From the NCBI GenBank assembly GCA_963790475.1, contig CAWBOS010000010.1, positions 896,001 to 960,000 on the forward strand: a DNA stretch of 64,000 bases, read 5' to 3'. The first letter of the stretch is position 1, and each line of letters begins with the position of its first letter. Below the pieces are notes generated by a model, which was not told the origin of the DNA, did not search any database, and saw only the letters and a list, made by a program, of their open reading frames with translations. This document shows, piece after piece, positions 12,603-64,000 of the stretch. This DNA is from an uncultured delta proteobacterium. Its GTDB lineage: Bacteria; Desulfobacterota; RBG-13-43-22. The translations under genes were made by a program, and so were the position numbers.

Positions 12603-12789
12603 ATTCTTTTCTCCTTTATAATAAATTGTGCCTGCCAGAATAATCGGCATTGCCTTTTTAATACTATCAATCGAATCAGGCAAAAATCAAGCAAAATCAC
12701 ATTAATGTTTATTGACAAATATCCCCTTTTCCAATATTAAAAAAAAATCGTCTCAATTTATACCGCCCATAAAGAAGGGAGAGGTCGTC

Positions 12790-13920: not shown

Positions 13921-13986
13921 TAGTTCGGAGTGATGAGTTCGGAGTTCGGAGTAAAAGACTGGTTTACCCGAACTCCGAACTCAAAC
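13921..13986. repeat. Heptamer tandem/inverted repeat (GAGTTCG)n...(CGAACTC)n
   Basis: Seen directly between livK and livH. Confidence 0.75.
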
Positions 13987-14021
13987 TTTACCCTAAACAA
14001 ATAAGCATAGGCAGGGAGGAA

Positions 14022-21389: not shown

Positions 21390-22066
21390 GAGTCAACGGA
21401 TTCGAATGCGCCTCGGTCTCCAAACGGGCCCGGGAAATAACCCCTTTTATTGCCATGGATGTCCTGGAAACGGCCCAGCTTATGGAGCGGTCGGGGGATT
21501 CGATCATTCATCTTGAAGTAGGAGAACCGGATTTCGATACCCCGGAGTGCATTAAGGAGGCCGCGATCCGGGCCTTGAAAGAAGGAAAAACCCACTATAC
21601 CGACAGCCGGGGAATCATTGAACTCAGGGAGGCAATATCCGCCCACTATTTCCGGCAGTACCGGGTCAGTGTCTCTCCGGATCAAATTATCATTACTTCC
21701 GGAACCTCGCCGGCCATGTTCATGGTCTTTTCGGCCCTCTTGGAACCCGGCCAGGAAATTATTATTTCCGATCCCCATTATGCCTGTTACCCTAATTTCA
21801 TCCAATTCGCTCAGGGAAAACCGGTCAAGGTTCAAGTCCGGGAAGAAGATGGTTTTCAATACTATCCGGAGGAAATCAAAAAACGTATAGGATCTAACAC
21901 CAAAGGGATTTTCATCAATTCCCCATCCAATCCCACCGGAACGCTTCTGTCGGAGGATCGGATGAAGGGGTTGGCCCGATATGAACCTTATATTATTTCG
22001 GATGAGGAAGGAATGAAACGTCTTCAGGTTTATTTGAACCGGGAAGACTACAAATCGATCTCATGA
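21386..22066 (+). pseudogene. Class I/II PLP aminotransferase (AspC-like) with large in-frame internal deletion
   Basis: GEPDFDTP, NSPSNPTG and IISDE join directly to the C-terminal EGMKRL; the PLP-lysine region is missing. Confidence 0.8.
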
Positions 22067-39649: not shown

Positions 39650-39724
<75 letters not shown>

Positions 39725-39747
39725 AAAAACAGGATTCCCATCTGAAA

Positions 39748-39823
39748 GGCGGCATAGCCAAGTGGCTAAGGCAGCGGTCTGCAAAACCGTTATTCACCGG
39801 TTCGAGTCCGGTTGCCGCCTCCA
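39748..39823 (+). tRNA. tRNA-Cys (GCA)
   Basis: GGCGGCA...CTGCAAA anticodon loop...GGTTCGAGTCC...TGCCGCCTCCA. Confidence 0.97.
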
Positions 39824-48254: not shown

Positions 48255-48762
48255 TTAGTCGTACCCTATCGACCAGTTCTGCCAAATCGAGAACTTTGAG
48301 CTGATCCTCCCGACCTTCGACTTAATCGCGTTGTCCAACATCCTGGCGCATTGGGGACAGGCCACCGCTATGATCTCAGTTGCGGTCTCCAGGGCCTCCC
48401 GGACGCGGACGCGGGCCGGACGGTCTTCCCCCGGCCCGATGATGTCGGTAAGAGAGCTTTGAAAAACGTCCCCCTTTGCCCAATTTCTGCGTCAGACTCA
48501 AATTTTAATCCTCGAAATACTAAATGTATTCCTGTGGTTAAAATTTTCGTCTTCCTTGACCTTGAACAAAATTAAACGTTTTTCAAAGGTCTCGGTAAAG
48601 AAGTTACCCCCGCCTCCTCCGCATCAAAAGGCATTTCCCTTATTCCGGCGCATTTCTATGAATTCGAGGCCGGGGATACTTTTTAATATTTCGCGTAGGG
48701 GCCCATAAATTTGATTGTGCCGACCCAGACAACACGGATCATGATAAGTCACCTTGGCTCGC
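48255..48762 (-). pseudogene. C-terminal CCG-domain remnant of an HdrD-like Fe-S protein with in-frame UGA and MITE insertion
   Basis: KVTYHDPCCLGRHN...NAF-UGA-CGGGGGNFFT|DIIG...VACPQC once 48452-48593 and one TSD copy are removed. Confidence 0.75.
48452..48593. mobile_element. 142-bp MITE with terminal inverted repeats and 5-bp target duplication
   Basis: GAGAGCTTTGAAAAACGT...ACGTTTTTCAAAGGTCTC; GGTAA repeated at 48447-48451 and 48594-48598. Confidence 0.85.
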
Positions 48763-48807
48763 TTGGCCCCCCGGCTTTCACCGGGGGGACGACTTTTTAC
48801 TGGACCT

Positions 48808-49572
48808 TCATTCTTTCTTTCTTGGATAATAGTTGGCCAGCATAGGATTGGGATCAACATAAGCCCCAATACTTGAGATGGGATACTTGAAGCCGATTTT
48901 CCCTAAAATGGCCAAGCCCTCGATGGCCCGATCCATATCCGAGGGCGGCAAGGCGATAACGATCTCCTCATCTTTTACCTGCCCCATGGAGCGTTCCCCG
49001 TAACAAGGAATAGCCAGGGAAGGTTTCCCGGTATTATAACATTGACCCAGCGAATCGACACAGGCTCCTTCTCCAATAAAATGAAACTCGAATCGCTCAT
49101 AATGAACCTTTTGCAGTCCGCACATCAGCATCATGAGCTGTGCCGGATTACCGTAAATCAGGATAACCTCCGGATCAAGGTTACCCTTGGCCAGAGGACC
49201 TATGACGATCGCCTCCCCGGGCGGAATCCTGGGGTAATCGTCCTGTTGCCTCCGACCTTCCTCAACCGATGGCATCCAGGTCCGGGAAAGCATTTTGGCT
49301 TCCTGCATCATAGCTTTCTCATCGGTAGCCAGCAGCCCGTGAATGCGTTTACAGCGTTCCCCGATGTTGTCTTCACTGGTCAATCCGATGGTTAAACCTC
49401 CGACTCTGGCCATAAAGGGGATCTGACAAAACATGGCGGGTCGGGTCCAGTGCATGACTCCCGGAACACTCTCCAATTCAGCGGACTTTTCAAAACGTCT
49501 ATAGCCGAGCGGTTCGCTTGAAAGACAGAGTTTTTCCTTTAATATTTTGCTTTTTTCAGCCCAGTTTTCCAT
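48808..49572 (-). CDS. DUF169 family protein
   Basis: FCQ, DPEVILIYGNPAQLM, GEGAC, PCYGER. Confidence 0.85.
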   Translation of the reverse strand: MENWAEKSKILKEKLCLSSEPLGYRRFEKSAELESVPGVMHWTRPAMFCQIPFMARVGGLTIGLTSEDNIGERCKRIHGLLATDEKAMMQEAKMLSRTWMPSVEEGRRQQDDYPRIPPGEAIVIGPLAKGNLDPEVILIYGNPAQLMMLMCGLQKVHYERFEFHFIGEGACVDSLGQCYNTGKPSLAIPCYGERSMGQVKDEEIVIALPPSDMDRAIEGLAILGKIGFKYPISSIGAYVDPNPMLANYYPRKKE

Positions 49573-49711
49573 AGCTCTTCTCCTTTGTTCCTCATTTTAA
49601 GTAACGTTATTCTTAATTTTCCATAGCTTAGAAATGATGGAATTTTTACCAAGCCGTTAAAAATAGTTCTGTCTGTCATTGGTATAATAATCTAAAATCC
49701 TCAGGATCAAC

Positions 49712-50242
49712 CTAGTCGACGGCCTGAGGAACAAGGCAGAACGTTGTAATCTGGTCGAAGCCGCTGTGACCACCGCCCTCTGTTCCCGAGACGACAACGG
49801 CATCGGCCCCAGCCTGCTCGGCTTTCCTGGCGTGTTTTACAGTGGAGCATACGTGAATCACCTTGATACCGGCTCTTTTTAGGATAGGGGTGTAAACTGC
49901 CGGGTTACCTTGAGAAACGATAGCCACCGGTATCCGCTCACTGAGTCCGACTTTCAGGCATTGATCACTGAAGTCCCGGTCCAGTCCGGGGACACCGACT
50001 ACGAAATTAACCACAAAAAGTTTATCCGTTAATTTTCGAAATTTTTTAATCTGTTCCCTGAGTCGTTCTCCTGTTTCAAGGACATCGGTAGTTACTGTTT
50101 GAAACCCGGCATTCGGCCCAATGGTGCCGAGCGCTCCGGCTTCGGAGACGGCAGCTGCGAGATCGGCATCCGTGATCCAAGCCATAGGCGCCAGCACAAT
50201 GGGGTAGGTGATCCCTAACATTTCAGTGATTCTGGTTTTCAT
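49712..50242 (-). pseudogene. Nitronate monooxygenase/FabK-like flavoprotein, 3'-truncated
   Basis: MKTRITEMLGITYPIVLAPM...GTEGGGH; stops at LVPQAVD, about half the usual length. Confidence 0.8.
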
Positions 50243-50457
50243 TTATCTGATCCTTTTTAGAGAGCAAAAGGATTTATTGACCGAGGTGATGCCTCAAAAG
50301 CCCTTAAATACCGGTTCCCTTTTCTCCTGGAAAGCTTTCGCTCCTTCTTTGAAATCTTCACTTTCAAATTGAGGTCGGACAAATTGCTTAAATTCTCTCT
50401 CGGCCTGTGCTACCGGAGTGTCCATTATTTTGTACATCCCGTATTTAATGATCCTTA

Positions 50458-52442
50458 GCCCATCTTCCGCAGTTTGGAGAAAAAATCAAGAAAAACGTGA
50501 TGAATTTTTAGGAATTGTTAAATGATTTCAAATCCTGATCTTTGAAAATTGGATGTAGTGAAGACCACCCCCTTGCCAGGTGCTGTGGGAACGGAGATAA
50601 TGGGGTTATGTATCTCCGGCGTGCAACCAAAAAGAAAGGTGGAGCGGAGTACGAGAGCTGGCTTTTAGTTGAGTCGGTCCGTACTGCCCGAGGGCCCCGT
50701 CAGCGAGTAGTGGCGACGATAGGGAAACTTCCTGGCCTTGATCGGGAAGAGCGGATAGGTTGGGAGGAGATCGGACGGATTCTTTCCGGAAAGCCTCTAC
50801 CTGGACCTGAACTGTTTGAGCAGGGGGAAGACCCCCCATCTTGGGCCACGGTCAATATCCATGGCGTAAGCGTCGAGCGACTCAGAGGCTTCGGCGATGT
50901 CTATTTGGGGTTGCTTTTGTGGAACAAACTGGGGCTTGCCAGGTTCTGCCGAGATCATATTCCTTCCAACCGGGAAGAGATTCCTTGGTCGATCATGGCG
51001 TCTATTTTAGTTCTTGGACGCTTTTGCGCCCCATCGTCGGAATTACAGATGGCCGAGTTTTGGTATGGCCAGACGGCCTTAGACGATCTGCTGGGAGTGG
51101 CCGACTATAAGATCAATGAGGATCGGCTTTATCGTGCCCTGGATGCCTTGCTTCCCCACAAGGATGCCTTAAGCCGTCACCTTCAGGAGCGTTATGGGGA
51201 ACTGTTCGGCAGTAGCTTTGATTTTTTGTTTTATGACATAACCTCCACCTATTTTGAGGGGACCGCCAAGGGCAATGCCCAGGCCAAGAGGGGTTACAGC
51301 CGGGACAGTCGTCCAGATTGTCCCCAGGTCTGCATCGGCCTGGTGGCCACCCGAGAGGGCTTTCCCATAGCCTTTGAGGTTTTTGACGGCAATCGACCGG
51401 ATGTTACGACGACCCAAGAGATGGTTCAGATGATGGAGGCCAAATACGGCCAAGCCAACCGGATCTGGGTTATGGATCGCGGCATGGTGAGTGAGGAGAA
51501 TCTGGAGTTTATGCGCAAAGTCGGTGCCCGCTATTTGGTCGGCACCCCAAAAGTGATGCTGAAGAAGTTTGAGCAGCAGCTTTTCGAACAGAACTGGGAA
51601 GCGGTCCAACCTGATGTTGAGGTCAAGCTCTGTTGCTCGCCGGAAGGAACGGATGAAATCTTTGTCCTGTGCCGGTCTCAAGGCCGGAAGGAGAAAGAAA
51701 ACGCCATTCTAAACCACTTTTTGACCCGACTGGAAAGCCAACTGGATCACCTGGCCCGCCAGGCCGAAACCGGCAAGCTCCGAGACAAGCAGAAAGTCGA
51801 GCGGAGAATAGGGCGACTGCTGGAACAAAATAAACGTGCGGCCTCGTTGTTCAATATTACAGTCATAGAGACCGGTACCGGAAAAGACGCACCGCTTTCC
51901 CTAGAAGTCAAGAAGAACGAACAACGGCAACAGTGGGCCTTGGAGACCGGCGGTAGCTACATCCTGCGCACCAACTGGACCGAAAGTGACCCGAAAGTCC
52001 TATGGAATACCTACATCCAACTGACGGAAGTGGAAGATTCATTCCGTACCGAGAAACATGATCTGGGAATGCGACCGATCTTCCATCAAAAACAGGAACG
52101 GACCCAGGCTCATATCCTGGTCTGCTTCTTGGCGCTGACTATGTGGCGAACGCTCCAGCAATGGATGAAAGCCTCGGGACTCGGTACCGCCCCAAGAAAG
52201 CTGTTGGAGGAGTTGCGGGAATTGAAATCTTTGGATGTGCTACTACCGGCGCGGGAGAGAACCCTCCGGCTCAGAATGGTGGCTACTCCCTCAAAGGAAC
52301 TCAAAGTGCTGCTTCAGAGATTGAAAATTCTGCTCCCCAACAAACCAAAAATTATTGAAAATGTAGTGAAGAAAATGCCCTAATTCTTGTCGTAACTATT
52401 TGATATCGCGTCTTCCATGCTTTCTAACTGCGGAAGATGGGC
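50458..52442 (+). mobile_element. IS1634-family insertion sequence
   Basis: Terminal IRs GCCCATCTTCCGCAGTT / AACTGCGGAAGATGGGC, flanked by TA (or TAG) duplication. Confidence 0.9.
50608..52383 (+). CDS. IS1634-family DDE transposase
   Basis: YDITSTYFEG, RGYSRD.RPD, VMDRGM, VEDSFR..K..L.MRPIFH. Confidence 0.93.
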   Translation: MYLRRATKKKGGAEYESWLLVESVRTARGPRQRVVATIGKLPGLDREERIGWEEIGRILSGKPLPGPELFEQGEDPPSWATVNIHGVSVERLRGFGDVYLGLLLWNKLGLARFCRDHIPSNREEIPWSIMASILVLGRFCAPSSELQMAEFWYGQTALDDLLGVADYKINEDRLYRALDALLPHKDALSRHLQERYGELFGSSFDFLFYDITSTYFEGTAKGNAQAKRGYSRDSRPDCPQVCIGLVATREGFPIAFEVFDGNRPDVTTTQEMVQMMEAKYGQANRIWVMDRGMVSEENLEFMRKVGARYLVGTPKVMLKKFEQQLFEQNWEAVQPDVEVKLCCSPEGTDEIFVLCRSQGRKEKENAILNHFLTRLESQLDHLARQAETGKLRDKQKVERRIGRLLEQNKRAASLFNITVIETGTGKDAPLSLEVKKNEQRQQWALETGGSYILRTNWTESDPKVLWNTYIQLTEVEDSFRTEKHDLGMRPIFHQKQERTQAHILVCFLALTMWRTLQQWMKASGLGTAPRKLLEELRELKSLDVLLPARERTLRLRMVATPSKELKVLLQRLKILLPNKPKIIENVVKKMP

Positions 52443-53079
52443 TAGACTTAAGGGGGCAAGTTTTAACAGTCGTTCGGCCCATTCTTTGGCTGTATCCATA
52501 AGCTTTTCATTGGCCACCACTTTGTTGACCAGACCGACTTCATAGGCCTTTTGAGCGTTAAACCAGGTCCCCAACAAGTAGAATTCCATACTTTGCTTAA
52601 AGGTCATATAAGGACGGTATTCAATAATTCCGCCTACCCTGCCTGCTCTTCCCTCAGGGAAGCCGAATTGCGCATCTTCGGCTGCGACCGTAAGGTCGCA
52701 CCCCCGAATGGCCAGACCGGAACCGGCTCCCATGGCCAATCCATGTACAGCGCCAATGATTGGTTTTAACACCTGGGTTCCGTTTGCCGGATAGCACTTA
52801 CGAACCGTCCCTGGCTCCAAGGCTCCCGGAGTTATATCCGCACCACCACAAAAAGCCTTTCCGGCACCACTAAGGATAGCCACGCGGGCCTCAGGGTCTT
52901 GCTCAAAACGATCCCAGGATTGACTCAGCGCAGCCACCATTTCATTGTTGATAGCATTCAATTTTTCGGGACGATTCAGGGTAATATAGGAAATCTGATT
53001 TCTTACTTCATAAAGAATCACATCGGCCATACCCTTCTCCTTCTTCTTCCGACCTTATTCCAAAATCGAGGTAAACCTC

Positions 53080-54102
53080 CTATACCGGCCAGGGTATCTC
53101 GCCCAGGGCCATTCGGCACAAATCGGTGATAAAAATTTTCGGAAGCCCGACCCTTGCAGTGGGCCGGCGCATCACAGCATCACAGATCGGGCATATGGTT
53201 ATCAGGGCCTCGGCCCCGGAATCTAAGGCATCCTGGACATTCTTGGTCTGCATATCCATAGCCAGGTCTTTATTGACGCCGATAGCGGGGCCACTGCAGC
53301 ACACGGCATCCAGGCCGTCATACCGTCTGGAAACGTGCTCCGCACCGATCAGGCCGAAGATTTCATCCAACCAGATATCCTGCTCCCGTATCCAGCGCAC
53401 CGCACAATTTGGCTGGTAGGCCACTTTCTTATTTAACCTGGTAAGGTCTTTTTGGTTTTTTTGGAGATAATCCCGCAGGTATTCGAACAGATGGTAATAC
53501 TTGAAAGGGACGGGTATTCCAAGTTCCTTGGCCTTCACATGGGCCAGGACATATCCCTCATTATGGATATAGACGATCTCCTTCTCCAATTCCGCTAATT
53601 TTTCAATCACCTGGCGGCCAAACCGCTCGGCGAAACTCTCTCCACCCATATGCACCATGCCGACCAGGGACATGTATTGCCCCCCTCGTACCACGGTCAG
53701 TCCTTTGAATAACCGACTCTCCACAGTCCCTTCTGGAAATTGCTTGAATTCAAAGCCATCAAAAGAAAGCGCCGGCTTATCCGGATCTCCTGCTATCACC
53801 TGACTATCGGTTTGGCCTTCCTCAAATCTCTTGGCCCGATCGGAGAGCATCGGTTTGGCATTGAGGACTAAGGGACTGGTTCCGATCTTCTCCTGCATTT
53901 TAAAAATCAGATTAGCCGGATCCGCGCCGGTGGGGCAGTTGTCAAAACAGGTGTTACAGGTGATGCAATTGTTCAGGATATCCGCGGGCTTCCCCTCCAT
54001 GAGCCGTTTTATTTCGCTTACCGCCTTGTCTTTATCATAGTTGACATAACGACATTTTACCAGACAATCACCGCATAAATCACATTTTGAAGCATTCCAC
54101 AT
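53080..54102 (-). CDS. Fe-S protein (2 ferredoxin motifs + CCG-type domain)
   Basis: CDLCGDCLVKC, CITCNTCFDNCP, YQPNC, VCCSG, ICPIC. Confidence 0.85.
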   Translation of the reverse strand: MWNASKCDLCGDCLVKCRYVNYDKDKAVSEIKRLMEGKPADILNNCITCNTCFDNCPTGADPANLIFKMQEKIGTSPLVLNAKPMLSDRAKRFEEGQTDSQVIAGDPDKPALSFDGFEFKQFPEGTVESRLFKGLTVVRGGQYMSLVGMVHMGGESFAERFGRQVIEKLAELEKEIVYIHNEGYVLAHVKAKELGIPVPFKYYHLFEYLRDYLQKNQKDLTRLNKKVAYQPNCAVRWIREQDIWLDEIFGLIGAEHVSRRYDGLDAVCCSGPAIGVNKDLAMDMQTKNVQDALDSGAEALITICPICDAVMRRPTARVGLPKIFITDLCRMALGEIPWPV

Positions 54103-54138
54103 TTTCCACCTCCGTTAGATTTTTGATGGTTTTTATAT

Positions 54139-55011
54139 TCAACTGGGACCCGTCTCAATTCCTATCTGGGCTAAGTATTCCATAAATCTCAAGCTCAATT
54201 CTTCAGGGCTTCCTTCAAATAATTCCTTGTTTTTTTCAGCCAACCCCCCCGACATAATCTGCCACATCCGGTCCTCGGCTGAAAGACTGGTATCGGGCGT
54301 AAAAATTCGTTTAGGCCTTGGCTTGGGTATTTTGATATTCAGCAATTCTACCTTGGTCTGTCCTAGGGTGTCTTCCGGCGATATGTTCAGACCTTTTTCC
54401 TTTATTCTGTTGATTTCGGTCTTCAGGGCGGATAAGAGGCAGGGCAGGGTGGAGTATCGCGGTTCATTCAAGCTTTCCTCTAGAGTGAGCAGGGCCGGAA
54501 GGGGAACCACGATCCTTTCCCTGTAGCCCTTTTCCAATTTTTTTTCCAACACCAGCTGCTTCTTCTCAATAAGCAAATCGAGTTTGGTTACCCGGGAAAC
54601 GATCGGCAGGTTCAGCCGGTCCGCTATCACGTATCCGGTCTGACCTCCAAAGTTGTCCATCGATCCGTGTCCGCAGAGGATGAGGTCTATGTCCATTTTA
54701 CGACACCAAGCCGCCAGGAGAACACCAATCGCATAGCCGTCCGGATTATTAACGGAGGATTCAATAATTGAGGCCTCATCAGCCCCGAGGGATAAACAAT
54801 GCCGTATTAAATTTTCTGCGGAAGGAGAGGATAGGGCGATCAGAAAGACCTTGCCCGATCCATTCGTCTCTTTCAAGCTCACCGCCGCTTCGACGGCGAC
54901 CAGATCGGAGGGGTGAACCGTATAAATAAGATCTTCCGGGTCGATCCGTCCGTCGTCGAAGCTGATGATATTCGGATCTGGAAAAAAATGGAGGCAGACA
55001 ATGATATTCAT
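54139..55011 (-). CDS. fixA: Electron transfer flavoprotein beta subunit
   Basis: AVEAAVSLKE, LGADEA, LILCG..S.D...GQTG, NEPRY. Confidence 0.88.
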   Translation of the reverse strand: MNIIVCLHFFPDPNIISFDDGRIDPEDLIYTVHPSDLVAVEAAVSLKETNGSGKVFLIALSSPSAENLIRHCLSLGADEASIIESSVNNPDGYAIGVLLAAWCRKMDIDLILCGHGSMDNFGGQTGYVIADRLNLPIVSRVTKLDLLIEKKQLVLEKKLEKGYRERIVVPLPALLTLEESLNEPRYSTLPCLLSALKTEINRIKEKGLNISPEDTLGQTKVELLNIKIPKPRPKRIFTPDTSLSAEDRMWQIMSGGLAEKNKELFEGSPEELSLRFMEYLAQIGIETGPS

Positions 55012-55122
55012 TTATAAGCTTTCAGCGATCAGCATTCAGACGTCAGGAAAACAACAGATAGCTCCTTGCTCATTACTGGGTGCTCGAAAAAACGAGAAAC
55101 GAGTAATCAGTAACGAAACTTT

Positions 55123-55803
55123 CTATGGCATTTTCGCTCCCAGCTCCTTTCTGGCTTGTTTGGCTTCATCCGACCTGAGCCAGGAGATATAATCGGGACG
55201 TTTCCGGGCGCGAAAAATAAGGTTGCTGAACAGATCCGCCCAGAAGGCCAGAGGTTTTAAGGTTTTTTCAAACTCGGGATTAAATGAAGCCCACCCACGA
55301 ACATGTTCTTCCGACCGGAAGAGGTTCATGCCCGCTCAACGATACGGTCTGGTCTCAAGGGTCCCGCCGATCTCACTGTAGGTATAACCAACAATGGGCT
55401 CAGGCTGCACCGAAAGGATGTCCTCGTCCTTCATTTCAATAACGATGGGTTCTCCGCAGTCCAGACAAATGGCATCAAGCCGTACATGCTTTCCGGGGAA
55501 GAGCCAGCGAACCGCCAGCGCTTCGAATCCTCACTGGGCGAACCATTTTGGTTCACCGTCTATGGTGATGCGGTATTGGGTGGGTTGGTTGTTGAAGGGA
55601 GGGAAAGAGGCAATCCAGTCCGTCTGGGGGTGGACCCAACCGGGCACCCCGGAAGTCATCAGGTCATGGACCAATTGACGCCCTTCTTCCATCCCGATCC
55701 CCAGGTCCTTGGCCAGTTCGGTATGATGGGGGGCCTGACCGGTTTTGATGAAACGTTGCATGATGTTGTAAAACGCCCGATCCATTAAAGCGAGATCTGC
55801 CAT
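55123..55803 (-). CDS. MerB-like organometallic lyase-fold selenoprotein with two putative Sec residues (226 aa)
   Basis: ORFs 55531..55803 and 55123..55329 share one frame, separated only by UGA at 55533-55531 (WFAQ-U-GFEAL) and 55338-55336 (RPYR-U-AGMNLFRSEEH). The 64 intervening codons are open and include CLDCGEP. AGGAGG RBS; a SECIS-like hairpin follows each UGA. Confidence 0.85.
55297..55335 (-). promoter_or_regulatory. Bacterial SECIS-like hairpin after second UGA
   Basis: GCGGGCAUG-AACC-UCUUCC-GGUC-GGAAGA-A-CAUGUUCGU: lower stem, internal loop, upper stem and G-containing apical loop. Confidence 0.8.
55498..55524 (-). promoter_or_regulatory. Bacterial SECIS-like hairpin after first UGA
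   Basis: GAAG-C-GCUGGCG-GUU-CGCUGGC-U-CUUC, beginning 7 nt after the UGA. Confidence 0.7.
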
Positions 55804-55828
55804 GTTGGTATCCTCCTTTTATAAAAAT

Positions 55829-55989
55829 AAGGGTTTAAGGTGCAAGGTACAGGGTTTAAAGTAAAAACCAGTGGTAACTTGGAGTACTGGAGTGATGGAG
55901 TACCGGAGTATTGGTCTGAAAAACCCGGTACTTCAAATTTTCAATATACCAATATCCTGTGTTCCAACACTCCCATACTCCATTACTCG
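55829..55989. repeat. Composite 7-mer and 8-mer (GGAGTAYT / ATACTCC) inverted tandem repeats
   Basis: Seen directly between fixX and the MerB-like gene. Confidence 0.7.
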
Positions 55990-55998
55990 CCTCCCGAT

Positions 55999-56268
55999 CT
56001 ACCCGTATCGCAGACATACTCCGTATCCCCCGCGGGGATAACTCCATTCAATAGCTTGGTTTTCGCAGGTGATGCGGCAGGCACCGCATTCCACACAACC
56101 TTGCCAGGAAAAAACAATTTCGCCCTGGCTCAGTACATAATTCTTAACCGGGCAAACATACAGACAAGGTTGATGGACGCAGGTAGAGCAACGTGATCGG
56201 TCGATCTTAATGTGCGGAGACAGATCGACCTTGAATCGTACTCGGGTTAATTTTTCTTCTATGTCCAT
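55999..56268 (-). CDS. fixX: Ferredoxin-like protein FixX
   Basis: CSTC...CLYVCP, GCVECGAC, WSYPRGGYGV. Confidence 0.9.
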   Translation of the reverse strand: MDIEEKLTRVRFKVDLSPHIKIDRSRCSTCVHQPCLYVCPVKNYVLSQGEIVFSWQGCVECGACRITCENQAIEWSYPRGGYGVCLRYG

Positions 56269-57614
56269 AGAATTGCCCGTACCCCCTGAAGGATATCTTT
56301 AAACAATCGAGACTTAGGAATTTTCCCTTTGGTGGTCTCCCGCATTATGGATAGAATATTTTTTCTCGGCTCCCCATTGACACGATAAAAACGGTGGGCT
56401 ATTTCACAGGCCAAATCAGGGTACGCTTTATACAACCTGGGATTGGAAAGGAATTCCGGGACACGGCGAAAGGTTTTAAGGTCTTGGAGTACAAAGCTCT
56501 TCTCCAGCAATTCCAGGTAATAAGCCATTTGCCGTTTAGAAAAATCTCTGTTCTTCTTGGCCCGGATGACGGTTTTGGCCGCCGCCAGACCGGAGGCAAT
56601 GGCTAAATTCATCCCTTCCAGTGTAATACCTGTCGAGCAGACGAAGCCGGCCGCGTCCCCGGAAAAGAGGACTCCGTTCCCATACAGTTTGGGCAGGGCT
56701 TTATAACCGCCTTCAGGAATCAGATGCCCGGAATATTCTTTCAGGATTGCGTTTTTTATTTTGTTTTCAATAAAGGGCTGGGTTTTAAATTTTTCCATAA
56801 GGTCGGCAATGGACAATTTCTTTTTTTGCAGGGCCTCCAAATTGGCCACGACGCCAATCGAAAGGCTTGAAAGGTTGGTATAAAGAAATCCGCCTCCTTC
56901 CACTCCCTGAGTACATTCACCCAGAAAAAGATGGGCCAGCCCTTCTTTGGGTTTCAGCTCGAAACGTTGGTTAATGATTTCTTCAGGAAGGGTCAAGACC
57001 TCCTTGGCCGCGACCGAGATATTCGAAGGGGACAAGGTCTTTCTAAAGCCGGACTTTTCAGCCAGAATCGAATTCACCCCGTCGGCCACGATAACCGCAT
57101 CCCCCAGCAGCAGGCCGTCGGACCTCGAGGTTTTGACCCCGGTTACCCTATTGTCCTCCAGCACCAGGTCAACCACGGTCGTTTCCGGAACGAGCAAGGC
57201 CCCTGCTTCCCTGGCCTTTTCGGCGTACCATCGGTCGAACCTGGATCTTAAGAGGGTAAAACCGTTATAGGGTTCTCTACCGAACCGATTATCCTGAAAG
57301 GTCGTGGAGAGGGATGAATCGGAAGTGAGAATCGTGGTCTGATATTTTGTAATAAAGCGTTCAACCGGGGCCTGGGTCCAATAATCTGGAATCAATTCGT
57401 TTAAGGCCGCGGAATAATGTAATACGCCGCCGAACATATTTTTCTGACCAGGTTCTTCAGCTCGTTCGAACAAAACACATTTCAGACCGGCCCGGGCCGC
57501 GGCCAGGGAGGCTGTAGTGCCAGCCGGACCGGCTCCCACCACAATTAAATCATATTTATCTTGCACCAGACTATCCCTTCGGCCGCTTTCCTGATCGGCG
57601 ACCGAGTCGGTCAT
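56259..57614 (-). CDS. fixC: FAD-dependent ETF:quinone oxidoreductase-like FixC
   Basis: VVGAGPAG, GQKNMFGG, GGGFLYTN, EYSGHLIPEGG, GDAAG. Confidence 0.92.
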   Translation of the reverse strand: MTDSVADQESGRRDSLVQDKYDLIVVGAGPAGTTASLAAARAGLKCVLFERAEEPGQKNMFGGVLHYSAALNELIPDYWTQAPVERFITKYQTTILTSDSSLSTTFQDNRFGREPYNGFTLLRSRFDRWYAEKAREAGALLVPETTVVDLVLEDNRVTGVKTSRSDGLLLGDAVIVADGVNSILAEKSGFRKTLSPSNISVAAKEVLTLPEEIINQRFELKPKEGLAHLFLGECTQGVEGGGFLYTNLSSLSIGVVANLEALQKKKLSIADLMEKFKTQPFIENKIKNAILKEYSGHLIPEGGYKALPKLYGNGVLFSGDAAGFVCSTGITLEGMNLAIASGLAAAKTVIRAKKNRDFSKRQMAYYLELLEKSFVLQDLKTFRRVPEFLSNPRLYKAYPDLACEIAHRFYRVNGEPRKNILSIMRETTKGKIPKSRLFKDILQGVRAILWT

Positions 57615-58581
57615 TGATCACCCTTATTAGTTCTACGGCGTCTCCCACCAGGCCCATATCCGAATATTTGAAGATATCCGCCGAGCGGTCTTTGTTGATG
57701 GCCACGATGGCCTTTGAATCTTTCATCCCCAGGACATGATAGATGGACCCTGATATTCCGCAGGCCACATAAAGATCAGGGGTCACTGTCGTACCGGTTT
57801 GTCCGACCAGGCATTTTCGTTCCGCCAGTTCGGCATCGACGGCCCCGAGGGAGGCCCCGGCCACCCCCCCTAACTTCCTGGCCAGCTCCCTGACCAGTTC
57901 GAAATTTTCCCGGCTGCCCAGCCCGCGCCCTCCGGAGATGATGATTTCAGCCTCGTCCAGGGTGATGGTTTCAGGGTCGGCCTTTATCTTGTCTGTGATT
58001 CGAAAATGCCTTTCCTCCTCGTTCAAACCGGGGTTGAAAACTTCCGCTATGATTTCCTTTTTGGGCCTGGTCCGTTTCTTATTAAAGGCGCCGGGGATAA
58101 TCGTAGCCATCTGAGGGGTCCCGTGGCGGCAAATAAAGGTGCCGGCTATCCGGCCGCCAAAGATAAGCCTGGTCTGCAGTAACAAACCCTCGTCGTTCAG
58201 AGAAAGATCAAGGCAGTCCATGATCAGCCCGGTTTTCAGTCTTGCCGCCAGCCGCCCGGCCAGGTCATTCCCGAAAAAAGTGGCTCCAAATAGAATAAAG
58301 CCCGGCCTTTTCTCAGCGCATATTCCGGAAAGGGACCGGGCATAAAGTTCCGGATCTTCGTTCACCAGCAGGGGATGTTCTAGAAAAAAGATCCGGTCCA
58401 CCCCGTAATCGGCCATGCCTTTAAGGGCCTCCCGGTTGGTTTCTCCGATTATCAAGGCCTGGAGTTCGCTGTTAAGTTTGGAGGCCAGATCCCTCCCTTT
58501 GTTCAGCACTTCCCGGGAGACCTCGGCAGCTTCTCCATTGCGCCACTCGACAAAAACCATGACGGATTTGTTTGAGTTCAC
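57571..58581 (-). CDS. fixB: Electron transfer flavoprotein alpha subunit
   Basis: ISGGRGLG, VGQTG..V.PDLYVACGISG, AINKD..ADIF. Confidence 0.92.
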   Translation of the reverse strand: MNSNKSVMVFVEWRNGEAAEVSREVLNKGRDLASKLNSELQALIIGETNREALKGMADYGVDRIFFLEHPLLVNEDPELYARSLSGICAEKRPGFILFGATFFGNDLAGRLAARLKTGLIMDCLDLSLNDEGLLLQTRLIFGGRIAGTFICRHGTPQMATIIPGAFNKKRTRPKKEIIAEVFNPGLNEEERHFRITDKIKADPETITLDEAEIIISGGRGLGSRENFELVRELARKLGGVAGASLGAVDAELAERKCLVGQTGTTVTPDLYVACGISGSIYHVLGMKDSKAIVAINKDRSADIFKYSDMGLVGDAVELIRVINDRLGRRSGKRPKG

Positions 58582-58702
58582 GGCTTATTGCAAGATTTTT
58601 ATTAAGGTTTAACTTTTTCTTGAAATAAGTTAATGCCACTGACCCACAATGACGCCCACAGACTTTTCCCACTGCGGAGTTTCGCAGGGGAAAACGACCG
58701 GG

Positions 58703-58728
58703 TACTGATTGACAGTCGTCAATCAGTA
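58703..58728. promoter_or_regulatory. Perfect palindrome, candidate repressor operator upstream of fixB
   Basis: TACTGATTGAC-AGTC-GTCAATCAGTA. Confidence 0.55.
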
Positions 58729-58798
58729 TAATTTATAGTCTGATCTTGTCTGTTTTTGTCCGTGGCAAAAAAATAATTAAGGCTTTGGTCTTATCCAT

Positions 58799-60754
58799 TC
58801 ACAATTTCCTGGCCGCCCGAGCGGCATCCCAGATCGAGTCCTGCAGTTTGCGCGGGGAATGGCAATGACCGATGTCATAGAGCTCTTTGATCTCACCCTT
58901 TAATGACCGGTATAAGGCGTTGTCCGATTTCCCGATATGGGCGTAAACAACCGTATCCACTCCTTCGATGCGTCTTTCTTCACCCGAGAGCACATGGCCG
59001 GCGATTACTGTATTCTCCCTGATCTCCTTGACCCTCGTCAGGGGGGTTATGACCACACCTTTCCTGGCCATTCGGGTATAAACAATGGCCAGGGTAGTGG
59101 CATCCAATTCACCGCCGGCATAAAGGGTGCGGATCAAAACCTCCACCTTTTTACCCCTGTCGGCCAAGAATTCGGCTGTGCCCAGGGCCTCTTCGTGGTG
59201 TTCATCGGCGATTATGACTACCTTATCTCCGACTTCGGCTTTCTCACTAAGCACCTTGCGAACCGTGACCAGGTTGGCACTCTGGTCCGTCTTTATACTG
59301 GGCAAAATTTCCACGGATCCCGTAGCCACGATAACCGCGTCGGGATTTTTTTCTCGGACCATCGCGGGGGTGACTGTCGTCCCCAGAACCACTTCCACCC
59401 CAAGCAGTTTCATCTGGTTTGAATAGTATCGGATGGCTTCGGCAAAATCGATTCGGCCTGGGATTTTGGTGGCGATATTCAACTGCCCACCAAGGGTTTC
59501 TTCCTTATCATAAAGCGTAACCTGATGGCCTCTCAGAGCGGCCACCCTGGCCGCCTCCAGTCCGGCCCCGCCGCCGCCGATGACCATTACCCTTTTCATT
59601 TTGGTTGCCGGGACAATGCCCATTCGCCCCTCTCTTCCCGCCTCGGGGTTGAGCGAGCAGCTTATGGGCCAATTTTTCTGGTAATACCCTATACAGGCCT
59701 GGTTGCAACCGATACATTTTCGGATCTCATCCAGCCGGCCTTCCTTGGCTTTTAGAGGCCATTGCGGGTCGCAGATCAGTGCCCTGGCCATGCCTATAAA
59801 GTCGGCCTGGTTATTCTCCAGAATCTGTTCGGCCTGAATGGGGTCGTTTATCCGTCCGTGACAGATGACCGGGATGTTGACCACTTCCTTGACTCCGACT
59901 GCCAGGTGAACAAAGCATCCCAGGGGGAAATACATGGGAGGAACGTGCCCGGAAAGGCCGGCGCAGACGCTCAAGTAGTCGATGTTACCGGTCTCCTCCA
60001 GCTTGGAGGCAATGACCCTGGCATCATCCAGGGTTAGTCCCCGGTTAATCAGCTCATCGGCCACCAATCTCATACCAACTGCGAAATCAGGACCCACCGA
60101 GGCCCGGACGGCCTCAAGGATTTCCCGGTGTATCTTCATCCGATTCTCCAGGCTGCCACCGTACTCGTCCTGCCGTCGGTTGGAAAGAGGGGACAGGAAG
60201 GAGACCAGAAGCATCCCCGCACCGACCGTGGACGAGATTTCTACCCCGTCAAACCCGACACTCTGCAGCCTCTTGGCTGCGTCGGCATAAGCCGACACCA
60301 CCTGCTGGATATGGTCGATTTCCATCTCATAGGGCGTGGAGTATTCAGGGGCCATCAACCCTCCGGGAAACTGTATCGGTGACGGCGCAAATCCCGTACC
60401 CCCGGTCAAGCTCCCATCGATTCTCGGTCCGGCATGCAGAAGCTGCCCAAATAACTTTGTTCCCTGATCATGCAAGGCCGTGGCTAGTCCCTCATAGGCG
60501 GGAAGAGAGCGGTCGTTCTGTATGGCCATAAAACCTCCGGCCGTACTCATCGCTCCCACCGCGTTCTGGCCTAATATGATTAAACCCACGCCGCCCTTAG
60601 CCCTGGCCAGGAAATATTGCAAGGCCCTTTCATTCGGTCCTTGATTTATCGGCCAGTATAACGGGACATGAGCGGAAAAAACGACCCGGTTCGGGATGGT
60701 CACATTGTGAATTTTCATGGGGGTGAATAGATACTTGAATTCTTGCGTTGCCAT
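58799..60754 (-). CDS. NADH:flavin oxidoreductase (OYE TIM barrel + 4Fe-4S + FAD domain; BaiCD/2,4-dienoyl-CoA reductase-like)
   Basis: RAKGGVGLI, FLSPLSNRRQDEYGGSLENR, CIGCNQAC, IGGGGAGLEAA. Confidence 0.9.
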   Translation of the reverse strand: MATQEFKYLFTPMKIHNVTIPNRVVFSAHVPLYWPINQGPNERALQYFLARAKGGVGLIILGQNAVGAMSTAGGFMAIQNDRSLPAYEGLATALHDQGTKLFGQLLHAGPRIDGSLTGGTGFAPSPIQFPGGLMAPEYSTPYEMEIDHIQQVVSAYADAAKRLQSVGFDGVEISSTVGAGMLLVSFLSPLSNRRQDEYGGSLENRMKIHREILEAVRASVGPDFAVGMRLVADELINRGLTLDDARVIASKLEETGNIDYLSVCAGLSGHVPPMYFPLGCFVHLAVGVKEVVNIPVICHGRINDPIQAEQILENNQADFIGMARALICDPQWPLKAKEGRLDEIRKCIGCNQACIGYYQKNWPISCSLNPEAGREGRMGIVPATKMKRVMVIGGGGAGLEAARVAALRGHQVTLYDKEETLGGQLNIATKIPGRIDFAEAIRYYSNQMKLLGVEVVLGTTVTPAMVREKNPDAVIVATGSVEILPSIKTDQSANLVTVRKVLSEKAEVGDKVVIIADEHHEEALGTAEFLADRGKKVEVLIRTLYAGGELDATTLAIVYTRMARKGVVITPLTRVKEIRENTVIAGHVLSGEERRIEGVDTVVYAHIGKSDNALYRSLKGEIKELYDIGHCHSPRKLQDSIWDAARAARKL

Positions 60755-60853
60755 AGTATCCCTCCTCTTTCACCAAAAAATTGGTTGTTCTCCCTCCTCG
60801 GATTCGTTCACCAGTAAGCTACCTAAGGCAATCTTAATAAATTGAAACCGCCT

Positions 60854-61351
60854 TCACGGAATCGCTTGAACGGTCCCTGAATCGTCCTCGAAGGAAAATA
60901 ATTTTTCGATAATATAGAGGACGTATTTTTCACAGGTATCTTTTGCTCTGCCTGATTCCCGGAATTTTTGGTACGCCCCGGGAACATTAAAATCCAGACC
61001 CAAAAGGCCCCGGCAGGTGATATCGCCGAATTGCCGGGTAAAATCATCAATCAAATTCCCGGCCTGAAGGCGGATATTATTTCTGGCCTCCTTGGCCTTT
61101 TCTTTGTCCGCCAGGGAACAACGATGCCGCAGTCCCAAACAGACGGCCGATGCGGAAACAGCACCGCAGGGGGCTTGTTGACGTCCGCTGATCCCCCCAT
61201 TGAAGGGAATGGCGGCCCAAAGAAGATCTTCATTGCCCAGATCGTAGCTTTCCCACATAACTTGCAGGACCGCCGGCCCTCAGTGATATCCTTTGTGCAA
61301 AAATTCCATGGTCTTCGTTTTTGCTTCTTCGAGCGAAATTTTAGTTGGCAT
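60854..61351 (-). CDS. C-GCAxxG-C-C family redox protein with putative Sec at codon 24
   Basis: ATG 61351 (AAGGA RBS): MPTKISLEEAKTKTMEFLHKGYH-U-GPAVLQV is in frame with MWES...PCGAVS...ITCRGLL...TCEKYV. Hairpin UCCUGCA-AGUUA-UGUGGGA follows the UGA. Confidence 0.82.
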
Positions 61352-61438
61352 ATTGAGCTTCCTTTCTATTAGATCTCTAACTGGTTGTTGAAACCGGGCA
61401 TCACGCCACTTGATGAATTTCTACGATTTCATAAAATT

Positions 61439-62245
61439 TTATTGATCGGCCAATTTGATCTTTTCCCTTAATTCCTCCACAGTCTTATTGAACCTCGGTT
61501 CAAAAAAAAGAAACTGATTGATGGGATATTTGGTGCTCTTCTCATGAGTTTCTTGTAATCCGATTAAGAAATTATCCAGTTTGCCGGCCGGCATGGTAAA
61601 AACCATTTCATCATCGCCGGCCATTCCCAATTGTCTGGCCCCCCGGCCCGGTATGACGTATCCGGCCTTGTCTTCAATCATCGGGGCGATCATTTCCCGG
61701 ACACAGGAGGCCCCGATGCTCGCCCAGGATTCTATAACTCCTCCTTCCGTGTAGATCATGGATTGAATCATCCTGGCCGTTTGAGCCGGATTGCCGTAAA
61801 TTAAAATAACATCAGGGTCCTGAATGATATCAGAATCCAAAGGAGATACCATCAAACCACGGGAAGAGAATTTTCTTTCGTCCATCAGAGATGAGGCCTT
61901 CTCTAAATTTTTTTTGGCGGCTTCACGATCCTTGATATACCCGGCATTAATCCTGAAATTGATCAGTTCTTCTTCTTTATTAAGATTTTTATTCAAGTCT
62001 CCCCAGCCAAAACTCATAAGAGCGGCAACACAATTAATGTCTTCGGGGGTAACAGCAAATGACCAGCCCCATTTCCGGGCGATGGTATTTATCTGGCAGA
62101 AGGCCATTTTCATCCCAAAAACAGCCGGGCGCCGCAAGGTGCTGGGGAGGTCGTTGACGTTATCAACAAATTTTATAGCTAAGGGATGTGTATGAACTCG
62201 CAAATATTTTTCAATGGTCTCGGCGGCCTTTTTAAAATCGGTCAT
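61439..62245 (-). CDS. DUF169 family protein
   Basis: FCQ, DINC, DPDVILIYGNPAQ, ASC, DDEMVF. Confidence 0.85.
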   Translation of the reverse strand: MTDFKKAAETIEKYLRVHTHPLAIKFVDNVNDLPSTLRRPAVFGMKMAFCQINTIARKWGWSFAVTPEDINCVAALMSFGWGDLNKNLNKEEELINFRINAGYIKDREAAKKNLEKASSLMDERKFSSRGLMVSPLDSDIIQDPDVILIYGNPAQTARMIQSMIYTEGGVIESWASIGASCVREMIAPMIEDKAGYVIPGRGARQLGMAGDDEMVFTMPAGKLDNFLIGLQETHEKSTKYPINQFLFFEPRFNKTVEELREKIKLADQ

Positions 62246-62310
62246 GGTTACCTCTCCTTCTTTTGAAATGATTGGCTTCTTATCTTCCCATGATGATTGG
62301 TATTATCGTC

Positions 62311-63480
62311 TTAAAGAAGCGATATTTCTCCGTTTTGAATGATATACCTTTGTTTTAATGCTTCGGGGTTCTCGCTGACACCTTTAAAGATATTCCTGGT
62401 AAGTTGGTTCTTGACCTCTTCAATCCGATGAGGCGGCTTTTCACCGACGGCGATCTGGGCCAATTCGGTAATATTGTAGATCTCCAGGCCGTGCTCGGCA
62501 GCCTTTTCCGATAAGGCGAAACATCCGGTACAACTGACAACGATGGTATCCGCCCCGGTTTCTTTGGCTTCCAGTACTCGTTTTTCGGCTATTTGTGAGG
62601 CCAATTGAGGGTTCCGACCGGATAGGGGGGAACCACAGCAGAGAGACTCTCTTCGATTGTGTTTCATTTCCACCAATTCTGTCCCCAGGAGTTTAAGGAG
62701 CCGACGCGGATTTTCATGAATTTCGGGTTTCATTTTTCGCCAGGCGCAGGAGTCATGAAAGGTGACCCGCCGATTAATAGGTTGGGGGAAGGTTATCTTT
62801 CCCGTTTGATGTTGTTCCAAAAGATAATCGACAATGTTTATATTTTTAATGGTGAATTCGGGAAGGAGCCGCGGATAGACCTCACCGATCATACGGTCAC
62901 ATCCCGGACAAAAAGTGACCATTTTTTCAACCCCTATTTTTTTTAGTTCTTCAAGGAGCTGTCGGCCTTTGAGGACGGCCTCTTCCTGTCCGAATAGATT
63001 ATTGACATATCCGCCACAGCAATATTTCATCCCCCCGATGATGGGCAGTTCTTTCAGTAACTTTGTTTTAGCCAGATCGTTATAGATATACGACAGACTG
63101 CATCCCAGGTAAAAAACCGTGTTTCCCGGTGAAGGATGGGGTTTGGTCTGGAGACTTTTTAATTTTTCCTCCTTTTCAAACTCAAGGCCGATCGACATAA
63201 GATTAAACGGGACTTCCTCGGTGATCAAGGATAAACAGGACACCCCTTTAGTTCGGGTTTTCTTTAATAAGATTTCTTTTCTAAGCTCTGAAGGGTTGGA
63301 TTGGGTCGGACAAATAATGTCGCAATAGGAGCACCCGGCGCAATTCCTGGCGACCACCTTTGACTCCATTGTTTCGATCATTTGAGAAATTTCCGCTGCC
63401 GCTTCATCCTGGGGCATTTCCAGAAAAGGACACCTCGTGAGGCATAATCCGCATCGTTGGCAATTTTCTTTGTTGAACAT
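62311..63480 (-). CDS. HdrD/GlpC-like Fe-S protein (ferredoxin + CCG domains)
   Basis: CQRCGLCLTRCP, CAGCSYCDIICP, YCCGG, FCPGC, FHDSC, LCCG, SCTGC. Confidence 0.88.
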   Translation of the reverse strand: MFNKENCQRCGLCLTRCPFLEMPQDEAAAEISQMIETMESKVVARNCAGCSYCDIICPTQSNPSELRKEILLKKTRTKGVSCLSLITEEVPFNLMSIGLEFEKEEKLKSLQTKPHPSPGNTVFYLGCSLSYIYNDLAKTKLLKELPIIGGMKYCCGGYVNNLFGQEEAVLKGRQLLEELKKIGVEKMVTFCPGCDRMIGEVYPRLLPEFTIKNINIVDYLLEQHQTGKITFPQPINRRVTFHDSCAWRKMKPEIHENPRRLLKLLGTELVEMKHNRRESLCCGSPLSGRNPQLASQIAEKRVLEAKETGADTIVVSCTGCFALSEKAAEHGLEIYNITELAQIAVGEKPPHRIEEVKNQLTRNIFKGVSENPEALKQRYIIQNGEISLL

Positions 63481-63617: not shown

Positions 63618-64000
63618 ATGAAAAAAATTACCATATTGGCCCTCCATAACTGTTTTGCCTCAACAGTGATGAGTCCGATGGACGTATTTTTCATGGCCGG
63701 GCAACTTTGGAATTTCATATGTGGTCTTCCCCCGACCCCCTTCTTTGAAATCGAGATCGTCTCATTTGATGGAAAGCCGGTAAAGTGTCTTAATAATGTT
63801 TTTATACAACCACACCGGGCAATAGAGTATGTAGAAAAAACCGATTTAATCCTTATTCCAAGCATTGCCAACATTGAAAAGACCATTAAATACGGCGCCC
63901 AAGGGCTTCGTTGGCTTCAGCACCAATATCACCAAGGAGCAAGTATCGCCAGTGTTTGCACTGGTTCTTTCTACCTGGCCGAAACCGGTTTGTTGAATGA
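63618..64000 (+). CDS. GlxA-family (DJ-1/PfpI + AraC) transcriptional regulator, partial at window end (not in ORF track)
   Basis: MKKITILALHNCFASTVMSPMDVF...DLILIP...WLQHQYHQGASIASVCTGSFYLAETGLLN. Confidence 0.85.
   Translation, partial: MKKITILALHNCFASTVMSPMDVFFMAGQLWNFICGLPPTPFFEIEIVSFDGKPVKCLNNVFIQPHRAIEYVEKTDLILIPSIANIEKTIKYGAQGLRWLQHQYHQGASIASVCTGSFYLAETGLLN

Follow-up and report, generated by a model that had tools for sequence, protein, structure and literature searches.

A 64,000-nt window from an uncultured delta proteobacterium (assembly GCA_963790475.1, contig CAWBOS010000010.1, positions 896,001-960,000; "the window" denotes this whole stretch) contains a 14.7-kb gene cluster at 48808-63480, in which a 226-aa MerB-fold protein is encoded at 55123-55803 (minus strand) with in-frame TGA codons at positions 91 and 156. 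Comparative sequence evidence makes it nearly certain that the protein represents a genuine selenoprotein family. The family is widespread and seemingly undescribed, a look-alike of the organomercurial lyase MerB in which selenium, as selenocysteine (Sec), replaces sulfur at one catalytic position or at both. For the cluster itself, the best explanation, which we hold tentatively and with a little less than even confidence, is a mosaic, decaying island that carries a recurrent unit of an Old Yellow Enzyme (OYE), electron transfer flavoprotein (ETF) subunits, and the MerB-fold selenoprotein, the last being a seleno-lyase recycled by flavin reductases.

UGA codons and hairpins of the MerB-like gene

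A GTDB scan with one genome per species identified 410 relatives of the MerB-like gene; all locus counts given here refer to 20-kb loci for the best 80 of these 410, with 330 loci outside the count. A protein-set search returned 432 relatives, and residues were counted in the best 120 (proteins shorter than 124 aa excluded). A second protein sample comprised the best 150 representatives of 50%-identity clusters.

In the window gene, the first UGA (55531-55533) stands at the position of MerB Cys96 and is followed by a hairpin with a 6-bp stem (55503-55519) that resembles a selenocysteine insertion sequence (SECIS). The second (55336-55338) stands at the position of MerB Cys159 and is followed by a SECIS-like hairpin with a 7-bp stem (55306-55323); all four features are on the minus strand. 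Codon 156 is TGA in 79 of the 80 loci, and the remaining locus, L079, carries a frameshift and has a TGA two codons earlier. At codon 91, 43 loci have TGA and 37 have TGC or TGT, never TGG, with about 11 Sec/Cys changes on a quick tree. Across all aligned codons of the 80 loci, only two other in-frame stops occur. Reading frame and homology run about 70 codons beyond UGA156, and codons 161-166 just after it are fixed at 0.91-1.00 across phyla, compared with a mean of 0.57 at 52 other conserved codons. The hairpins are likewise conserved. All seven pairs are intact after UGA156 in 68 of 79 genes; after codon 91, 42 of 43 TGA genes keep the 6-bp stem complete, compared with 13 of the 37 with Cys (Fisher p 4e-10, uncorrected for kinship), and the 24 distinct sequences of the TGA group show both consistent and compensatory pair changes. 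The features by which bacterial selenoproteins are recognized (at least 10 examples, TGA at the site, and homology through the site; Haft and Gwadz) are thus present at both 156 and 91. A SECIS hairpin just 3' of the UGA is indicated by conservation, the energy test on the window alone being nonsignificant.

Database proteins carry the expected scars. Among the best 120 relatives, site 91 is Cys in 86, Trp in 33, and Gly in one, and site 156 has no residue in 83 (nearly all stop just before it), Trp in 34, and Cys in three; among the 150 cluster representatives, 44 stop at position 90 and 13 near 155. The Trp residues at 156 would fit UGAs that are read as tryptophan under another genetic code, just as the truncations would fit true stops in a pseudogene or split gene. 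The likelihood of either is practically nil: UGA alternates with Cys codons and never with TGG in the 80 loci, the frame stays open with homology well past the second site, and TGA is the ordinary stop of five of the 13 cluster genes. UGA as Trp or stop was ruled out on these grounds, and given the Cys/TGA alternation and the TGA stops in the cluster, the Trp entries are best read as the product of gene callers using code 4.

Three null results weigh against the selenoprotein interpretation. The two hairpins of the window do not exceed synonymous shuffles in stability (p 0.14-0.38), TGA and Cys genes do not differ in mean folding energy downstream of codon 91 (p 0.95), and ARAGORN found no tRNA-Sec in the 64-kb window or the 20-kb loci. 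With the folding-energy tests nonsignificant, the case for SECIS elements rests on conservation.

More distant relatives may extend the family. Several MerB-like proteins of 153-159 aa (P0287, P0304, P0342, P0252, and P0253) end at about the second Sec site, hinting at further Sec-containing clades beyond the best loci, and another distant clade at 45-54% identity (e.g., P0018 and P0021) is known as proteins alone.

Relation to MerB and SaoL

The gene had been called MerB-like in the preliminary description, and comparison of a predicted model (pLDDT 95.8) confirms the MerB fold. The match to 5c17 reaches Z 17.3 with a root-mean-square deviation of 3.6 Å over 194 aligned residues; crystal MerB structures score Z 15.6-17.3 and the next unrelated row Z 5.2. 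In a structure search only MerB matches well (E 3e-9 to 2e-6), and the Pfam MerB model scores 62.9 bits. U91, E94, C113, and U156 align with Cys96, Asp99, Cys117, and Cys159 of solved MerB. Glutamate occupies position 94 in 80 of 80 loci, and Sec156 is preceded by Arg in 78 of 79 loci and by Asn in one. An added CxxC at 113-116 is invariant in one alignment and has Gly at 116 in three of the 80 loci; L077, L078, and L080 (~9989-11110; Poriferisodalis/Microthrixaceae) combine Gly116 with a C-terminal extension of ~145 aa that has no Pfam match.

With MerB (PF03243; 3f0o, 5c17), the family thus shares the fold (TM ~0.6) and the positions of the two metal ligands, the acid, and Cys117. It differs in being only 16-19% identical, in having Sec at both ligand positions (in the window), Glu for Asp99, and the added CxxC, and in lacking a mer operon. 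The MerB residue signature of Cys96/Asp99/Cys159/Cys117 (PMC8261052) is replaced by Sec91, Glu94, Sec156, and Cys113, and the NCBIfam MerB models score far below their cut-offs (NF009710, 31.1 bits versus 193; NF033555, 24.1 bits versus 200), with similar scores for four relatives. In the quick tree, which leaves out L067 and L079, contains no SaoL row, and uses three plasmid MerBs as an outgroup on long branches, the family is separated from the plasmid MerBs by a long branch with full support, and the rows nearest to the window protein are from Binatia (72-77% identity). As a quick version with long outgroup branches, the tree serves only for a rough count of independent lineages.

No merA or merR occurs among the 19 window proteins scanned with NCBIfam, and the 80 loci contain no true match to one MerR and one MerA query (merT and merP were not searched). 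Three merA-like matches in the loci lack the C-terminal Cys pair of MerA, and the one that was scanned scores 296 against a cut-off of 454. The family is also absent from 72,556 plasmids, where the best match is below 28% identity. On residue signature, NCBIfam cut-offs, and missing mer context, membership in MerB was rejected.

A related question is whether the selenoprotein could be a true organomercurial lyase that acts outside mer operons as a hidden methylmercury demethylase. The MerB fold, equivalents of all four signature residues, and a carboxylate at position 99 are what such an enzyme would need; moreover, published accounts describe selenium-mercury binding as very strong and MerB without MerA as common (10.1101/2022.07.06.499078, PMC8261052). 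We consider it unlikely. Asp99 is described as essential in MerB, with variants much less active (PMC10114901), yet Glu is universal here; merA and merR were not found in the 80 loci, nor the family among the 72,556 plasmids, and MerB scores of 24-31 bits stand against cut-offs of 193-200; mercury held on two selenolates would presumably be hard to release; and the neighbors are catabolic enzymes.

The selenoprotein SaoL (NF040728; 10.1101/2022.07.06.499078) shares with the family the MerB fold, Sec at the Cys159 position, a location outside mer operons, and truncation in databases. According to the same text, SaoL has one Sec in a CU motif, retains Cys and Asp at MerB positions 96 and 99 (its Cys99 and Asp102), and is the marker of a nine-gene SAO locus in 52 anaerobes. 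The present family instead has R-U rather than CU, a second Sec in about half of its members, Glu for Asp, variable neighbors, and 410 GTDB matches. Against the SaoL cut-off of 140 bits, the window protein scores 37.9 and four relatives score 29-45, and no other Sao family is matched among the 19 window proteins, which, unlike the 80 loci, were scanned for Sao models. SaoL membership was therefore rejected on the missing CU dipeptide, Glu94, and scores far below the cut-off.

Neighborhoods and the gene island

The MerB-like gene was the sole anchor of the neighborhood comparison. Flanks extend at least 8 kb on both sides in 46 of the 80 loci and less than 2 kb on one side in 17, and the Pfam scan of neighbors covered 134 proteins, mostly cluster representatives, from 282 chained open reading frames (ORFs). 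Within the window, where all cluster genes named below are on the minus strand unless stated, the MerB-like gene, an OYE/FadH-type FMN-4Fe-4S-FAD oxidoreductase (58799-60754; TIGR03997, 614.2 bits, cut-off 793), ETF alpha (FixB-like, 57571-58581; Pfam ETF and ETF_alpha), and ETF beta (FixA-like, 54139-55011; Pfam ETF) are spread around fixCX. The latter encode a FixC-like flavoprotein (56259-57614; NF007450 370.7 and NF007542 361.9 bits, both under cut-off), whose true start is probably a GTG near 57565, and a FixX-like ferredoxin (55999-56268; NF011993 51.7 bits, cut-off 166). The FixABCX gene set is complete, each member falling below the cut-off of its named enterobacterial model.

The same four genes (OYE, ETF alpha, ETF beta, and MerB-like) occur together in L008 and L015. 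More broadly, nine OYE genes are present in seven of the 80 loci, each of which has a co-oriented copy within 2.2 kb, and the window OYE shares 46-47% identity with four Dehalococcoidia OYEs whose genes immediately precede the MerB-like gene. The association spans about four separate tree lineages plus the window (rough binomial p 0.018 for four of five lineages under an assumed null). We lean modestly toward a functional link between the MerB-like protein and OYE. The preliminary description had proposed a pathway that couples a selenoprotein lyase and redox proteins to ETF electron flow; the part that stands is the recurring link of the MerB-like gene to OYE (7/80) and to ETF alpha and beta (2/80), and the part that falls is one conserved pathway of all genes.

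Several points count against such a unit. OYE is missing from 73 of the 80 loci, and the OYE of the window is only 38-39% identical, and its ETF subunits 26-30% identical, to those of L008 and L015, so that the OYE-ETF-MerB-like core may be convergent. The commonest neighbor is instead the LLM family (33 genes in 29 loci, only 10 of them co-oriented within 2.5 kb), whose genes are presumably abundant in these lineages anyway; together with the OYE-less majority, this means that the neighbors say little about the substrate. Fused longer forms are uninformative: the single example, a protein of 1576 aa with FN3-type domains, gives no hint of function.

Other close neighbors are acyl-CoA dehydrogenases, a sulfite-oxidase-family enzyme, a PrdB/GrdB-like protein, a nitroreductase, and a rhodanese, as well as cupins in five loci from two lineages (one CDO_I match, the others weak Cupin_2). 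In L010, the PrdB/GrdB-like ORF (10782-11282) lies directly downstream of the MerB-like gene and is possibly another selenoprotein. In a Dehalococcoidia clade (L036, L042, L056, L062, and L076), the gene adjoins a solute-binding/ABC transporter set, with SBP_bac_11 in L076, in a conserved housekeeping region; we take this set to be probably for molybdate. Acidimicrobiia/Actinomycetota contribute about half of the 80 loci, and others are from Binatia, Dehalococcoidia, and Entotheonella; some adjoin tryptophan dioxygenase or cupin genes. On this host range, "anaerobic" does not describe the key gene.

The remainder of the island was described as a co-oriented series with a divergent GlxA regulator, and all named genes do lie on the minus strand in that order, with Pfam support. 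The regulator (GlxA/GbdR-type, 63618-64000, plus strand; DJ-1_PfpI) starts at 63618 and runs off the window as an N-terminal part that scores 45.6 bits against GbdR (cut-off 480). Next come a soluble Fer4 and CCG Fe-S protein (62311-63480; Pfam CCG and Fer4), a DUF169 protein (61439-62245; Pfam 148.8 bits, Atlas look-alikes all DUF169), and a C-GCAxxG-C-C selenoprotein with a stand-alone HUGP domain (60854-61351) and an in-frame TGA at codon 24 (61280-61282). Beyond the OYE, Fix, and MerB-like genes, the series continues with a second Fer4 and CCG Fe-S protein (53080-54102; Pfam, 24% identity to the first). The gap of 195 bp upstream of the MerB-like gene contains short imperfect inverted repeats (55836-55995, by eye) with no second copy in the window.

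In 119 homologues of the C-GCAxxG-C-C protein, the UGA site is Cys in 34 and Trp in one, and the remaining 84 start downstream of it; both UGA-containing genes, this one and the MerB-like gene, are selenoproteins by the usual comparative criteria, as had been claimed. The protein matches the HUGP/GUXX-star fusion model NF045501 at 245.9 bits (cut-off 325) over profile positions 1-159 of 236. It shares the HUGP motif with that fusion, but has a single Sec and lacks the GUXX-star half, no such motif being found in frame after its stop. As a member of the C-GCAxxG-C-C selenoproteins (PF09719), the gene is not new, since both kinds are already in Table 1 of PMC13188914.

The distal end of the island is broken. 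An enoyl-CoA hydratase gene is split into a 5' part (52443-53030; Pfam ECH_1 positions 3-201 of 251) and a 3' piece (50294-50455; matching 16 NCBIfam hydratase models at their C-terminal ends) by a 1989-bp IS1634-family insertion sequence (IS) at 50456-52444 on the plus strand. The element has a transposase ORF at 50542-52383 (NF033559, 332 bits, cut-off 100), ends in 19-nt perfect inverted repeats, thereby showing both hallmarks of the family, and is single-copy in the window by blastn; the hydratase halves are in frame with each other across the empty site. The claimed order and strand of the named genes stand, but IS1634, on the opposite strand inside the hydratase, interrupts the co-oriented series. 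The NMO/FabK-like gene (49712-50242, 176 aa; TIGR03151 positions 1-158 of 307) is truncated: Pfam NMO coverage stops at 190 (from 2) of 331 and the next gene begins only 140 bp beyond the stop, indicating that the C-terminal part was deleted. That next gene is a second DUF169 protein (48808-49572; Pfam, 23% identity to the first). Last is a CCG-domain pseudogene remnant (48255-48797) without its 5' part, interrupted by a 142-bp insert (48452-48593) that resembles a miniature inverted-repeat transposable element (17/18 terminal inverted repeats, 5-bp duplication); its TGA (48624-48626) may be a Sec codon or mere decay. An intact CCG Fe-S gene elsewhere in the window (23886-25037, minus strand; 54% identity over 56 aa to the remnant) has Cys at the position of this TGA. 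Convergent on the cluster end is a LarA-family nickel-pincer racemase (46904-48178, plus strand; best model LarAH6, 282 bits versus a cut-off of 500).

Composition is in keeping with a patchwork. GC content at third codon positions is 0.46-0.52 in the regulator, first CCG, first DUF169, and HUGP genes and 0.64 in OYE and ETF alpha, with 0.55-0.61 in six genes elsewhere in the window. A promoter and terminator scan of the cluster gave chance-level results (19 versus 15.7 expected and 20 versus 20.1 expected), with leads only in a 10/12 site upstream of 63480 and hairpins at 58702-58729 and 48767-48788, and Rfam had no match inside the cluster. The window sequence contains zero N letters, and its C-GCAxxG-C-C protein (P0123) is recorded with a longest contig of 2.0 Mb. 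Overall, the cluster looks like a local patchwork with broken parts: a mosaic catabolic island, specific to its lineage, that is decaying at its distal end.

The idea that the whole run from 63480 to 48808 encodes a single conserved, anaerobic, selenium-dependent pathway draws on the shared orientation of its genes and their short intergenic gaps (36-217 bp), on the OYE-ETF core in L008 and L015, and on L024, the one locus in 80 with DUF169, which there lies directly upstream of both MerB-like gene copies. The latter locus (7855-15304, Entotheonella) is a tandem duplication of an F420-type LLM, DUF169, and the MerB-like selenoprotein gene. The reading is very unlikely, and for distant genomes it is largely refuted. 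A profile search found the C-GCAxxG-C-C gene in none of the 80 loci; GlxA and a FixC orthologue are likewise in none, with only three generic FAD matches for the latter. CCG occurs in two loci, on the opposite strand and more than 6 kb away, and NMO in one, 8 kb away. Hydratases are present in 14 loci, but of their 15 genes only two lie within 2.5 kb in the same orientation, and in the window itself three distal genes are broken. A conserved 13-gene pathway was rejected accordingly, and the proposed neighborhood search for MerB-like, Fix/ETF, DUF169, and C-GCAxxG-C-C genes together was mostly negative in the 80 loci, only two of which (L019 and L040) carry Desulfobacterota family labels. From these loci, the cluster as a whole is probably not conserved.

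Similarities to known OYE and ETF systems were weighed next to this island. The best solved relative of the window OYE is NCR (6qkg, E 3e-92), with trimethylamine dehydrogenase (TMADH) at E 1e-48. His-x-x-His-x-Tyr is the usual motif of ene-reductases; in the alignment it is missing from the OYE of the window and its four Dehalococcoidia partners, so the enzyme need not be a C=C reductase. The best NCBIfam model for the window OYE and three neighbor OYEs scanned is mycofactocin-system OYE 2 (TIGR03997, 567-669 bits), but all remain under the cut-off of 793 and the ETF matches (NF038209 and TIGR04503) reach only 129 of 240 and 73 of 200; membership in the mycofactocin system was rejected on these scores. 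A plasmid search with the OYE returned 547 records, all below 39% identity, with no informative name among the matches listed.

Alternatively, the island could be a DgcAB-FixAB-like dehydrogenase or demethylase operon in which the selenoprotein genes are passengers. The dgcAB_fixAB operon of dimethylglycine catabolism, described as being under GbdR with ETF alpha before beta (10.1101/2025.03.18.643870), has OYE, CCG Fe-S protein, ETF alpha/beta, and GlxA-type regulator in common with the window; solved OYE relatives also include trimethylamine and histamine dehydrogenases, and GbdR is the best NCBIfam match of the regulator fragment. Since the alpha-before-beta order also occurs in L008, L015, and, by that account, dgcAB_fixAB, the displaced fixA highlighted in the preliminary description is no peculiarity. 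The window differs by adding FixCX, two selenoproteins, DUF169, and a hydratase, and the matches are distant (TMADH at E 1e-48 versus NCR at 3e-92; GbdR 46 of 480 bits). Pfam found no DUF3483 on the window CCG proteins, and no DgcA model or named DgcA is among the matches listed. That the closest OYE relatives found, at 46-47% identity, lie directly upstream of the MerB-like gene argues against a passenger role, and we regard this alternative as quite improbable.

Elsewhere in the window, a group II intron lies at 476-2417 (plus strand; Rfam RF02005 and RF00029), with a reverse transcriptase/maturase ORF at 913-2316 (by eye), and tRNA-Gly and tRNA-Cys lie at 39650-39823 (plus strand). Further genes look split or shortened (25315-27361, 32796-34984, 6444-7701, 21386-22066, and 3477-4310); we take these to be ribonucleotide reductase, aldehyde:ferredoxin oxidoreductase, a second glgC, an aminotransferase, and a sigma-54 regulator. 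Either genome decay or assembly indel errors would account for them.

Candidate chemistry and significance

By analogy with MerB, the protein is possibly, though somewhat short of probably, a bond-cleaving lyase on a non-mercury substrate. In MerB, according to PMC10114901, Cys96 and Cys159 hold the substrate and Asp99 protonates the carbon, after which MerA removes and reduces the metal. In the proposed scheme, two chalcogen ligands (Sec/Sec or Cys/Sec) would grip a soft heteroatom of the substrate in a MerB-like manner, and the Glu94 carboxylate would protonate the leaving carbon so that the carbon-heteroatom bond is broken. The heteroatom would more likely be S, Se, or a metalloid than Hg, given the missing mer context; together with the catabolic, partly sulfur-related neighbors, this points away from mercury resistance and does not name the substrate. 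The bound product, or an oxidized Se-Se or Se-S pair, might then be cleared by a neighboring flavin reductase in the role that MerA has for MerB: OYE in this host, and F420-dependent LLM, nitroreductase, or PrdB-like proteins elsewhere. The OYE/selenoprotein system would be linked to NADH, ferredoxin, or quinone through ETF and FixCX, and the GlxA-type regulator would control the island.

A protein that handles redox equivalents or metal(loid)s without lyase activity would use the same residues differently, its selenols cycling as a diselenide or selenenylsulfide or holding a soft metal for transfer. Two adjacent chalcogens, the Sec/Cys interchange at 91, the added CxxC at 113-116, and neighbors that are mostly oxidoreductases are compatible with this, but the Sec sites have no thioredoxin-type motif, and the invariant Glu at the proton-donor position in an intact MerB fold suggests protonolysis chemistry. 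We judge such a role fairly unlikely and retain the seleno-lyase as the working reading.

As for novelty, an inventory of 119 selenoprotein families (May 2026) has SaoL as the sole MerB-like entry in its Table 1 (PMC13188914), and no NCBIfam 20.0 model is passed by the MerB-like protein. The literature searched (including PMC9312934) showed no MerB-like selenoprotein besides SaoL; BSepDB lists and supplements were outside this search, and a prior listing is possible. MerB is not mentioned in the main text of PMC2398784, PMC12013277, or PMC13326102. Members may be listed in BSepDB under SaoL or as unvalidated candidates, and databases annotate members as truncated "organomercurial lyase" or hypothetical proteins. 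Mercury-cycle surveys screen MerB on Cys96/Asp99/Cys159 (PMC8261052, PMC12484752). Between these filters and gene callers that stop at UGA, the family is mis-called or dropped in merB surveys.

In summary, the whole cluster, which looks like the decaying island of one lineage, matters less than the MerB-like family: a large candidate selenoprotein family of 410 loci in which a known lyase fold carries Sec at both of its catalytic positions, and whose natural Sec/Sec, Cys/Sec, and Cys/Cys versions make its chemistry easy to test. A far-reaching possibility, to which we assign a low likelihood, is a widespread seleno-lyase that would act on carbon-metal(loid) bonds, including that of methylmercury, in members of Dehalococcoidia, Binatota, Acidimicrobiia, and Desulfobacterota, with flavin or F420 reductases rather than MerA receiving the product. 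How mer-independent demethylation works is, according to PMC10114901, only partly understood; if true, the seleno-lyase would be a directly testable candidate for it.

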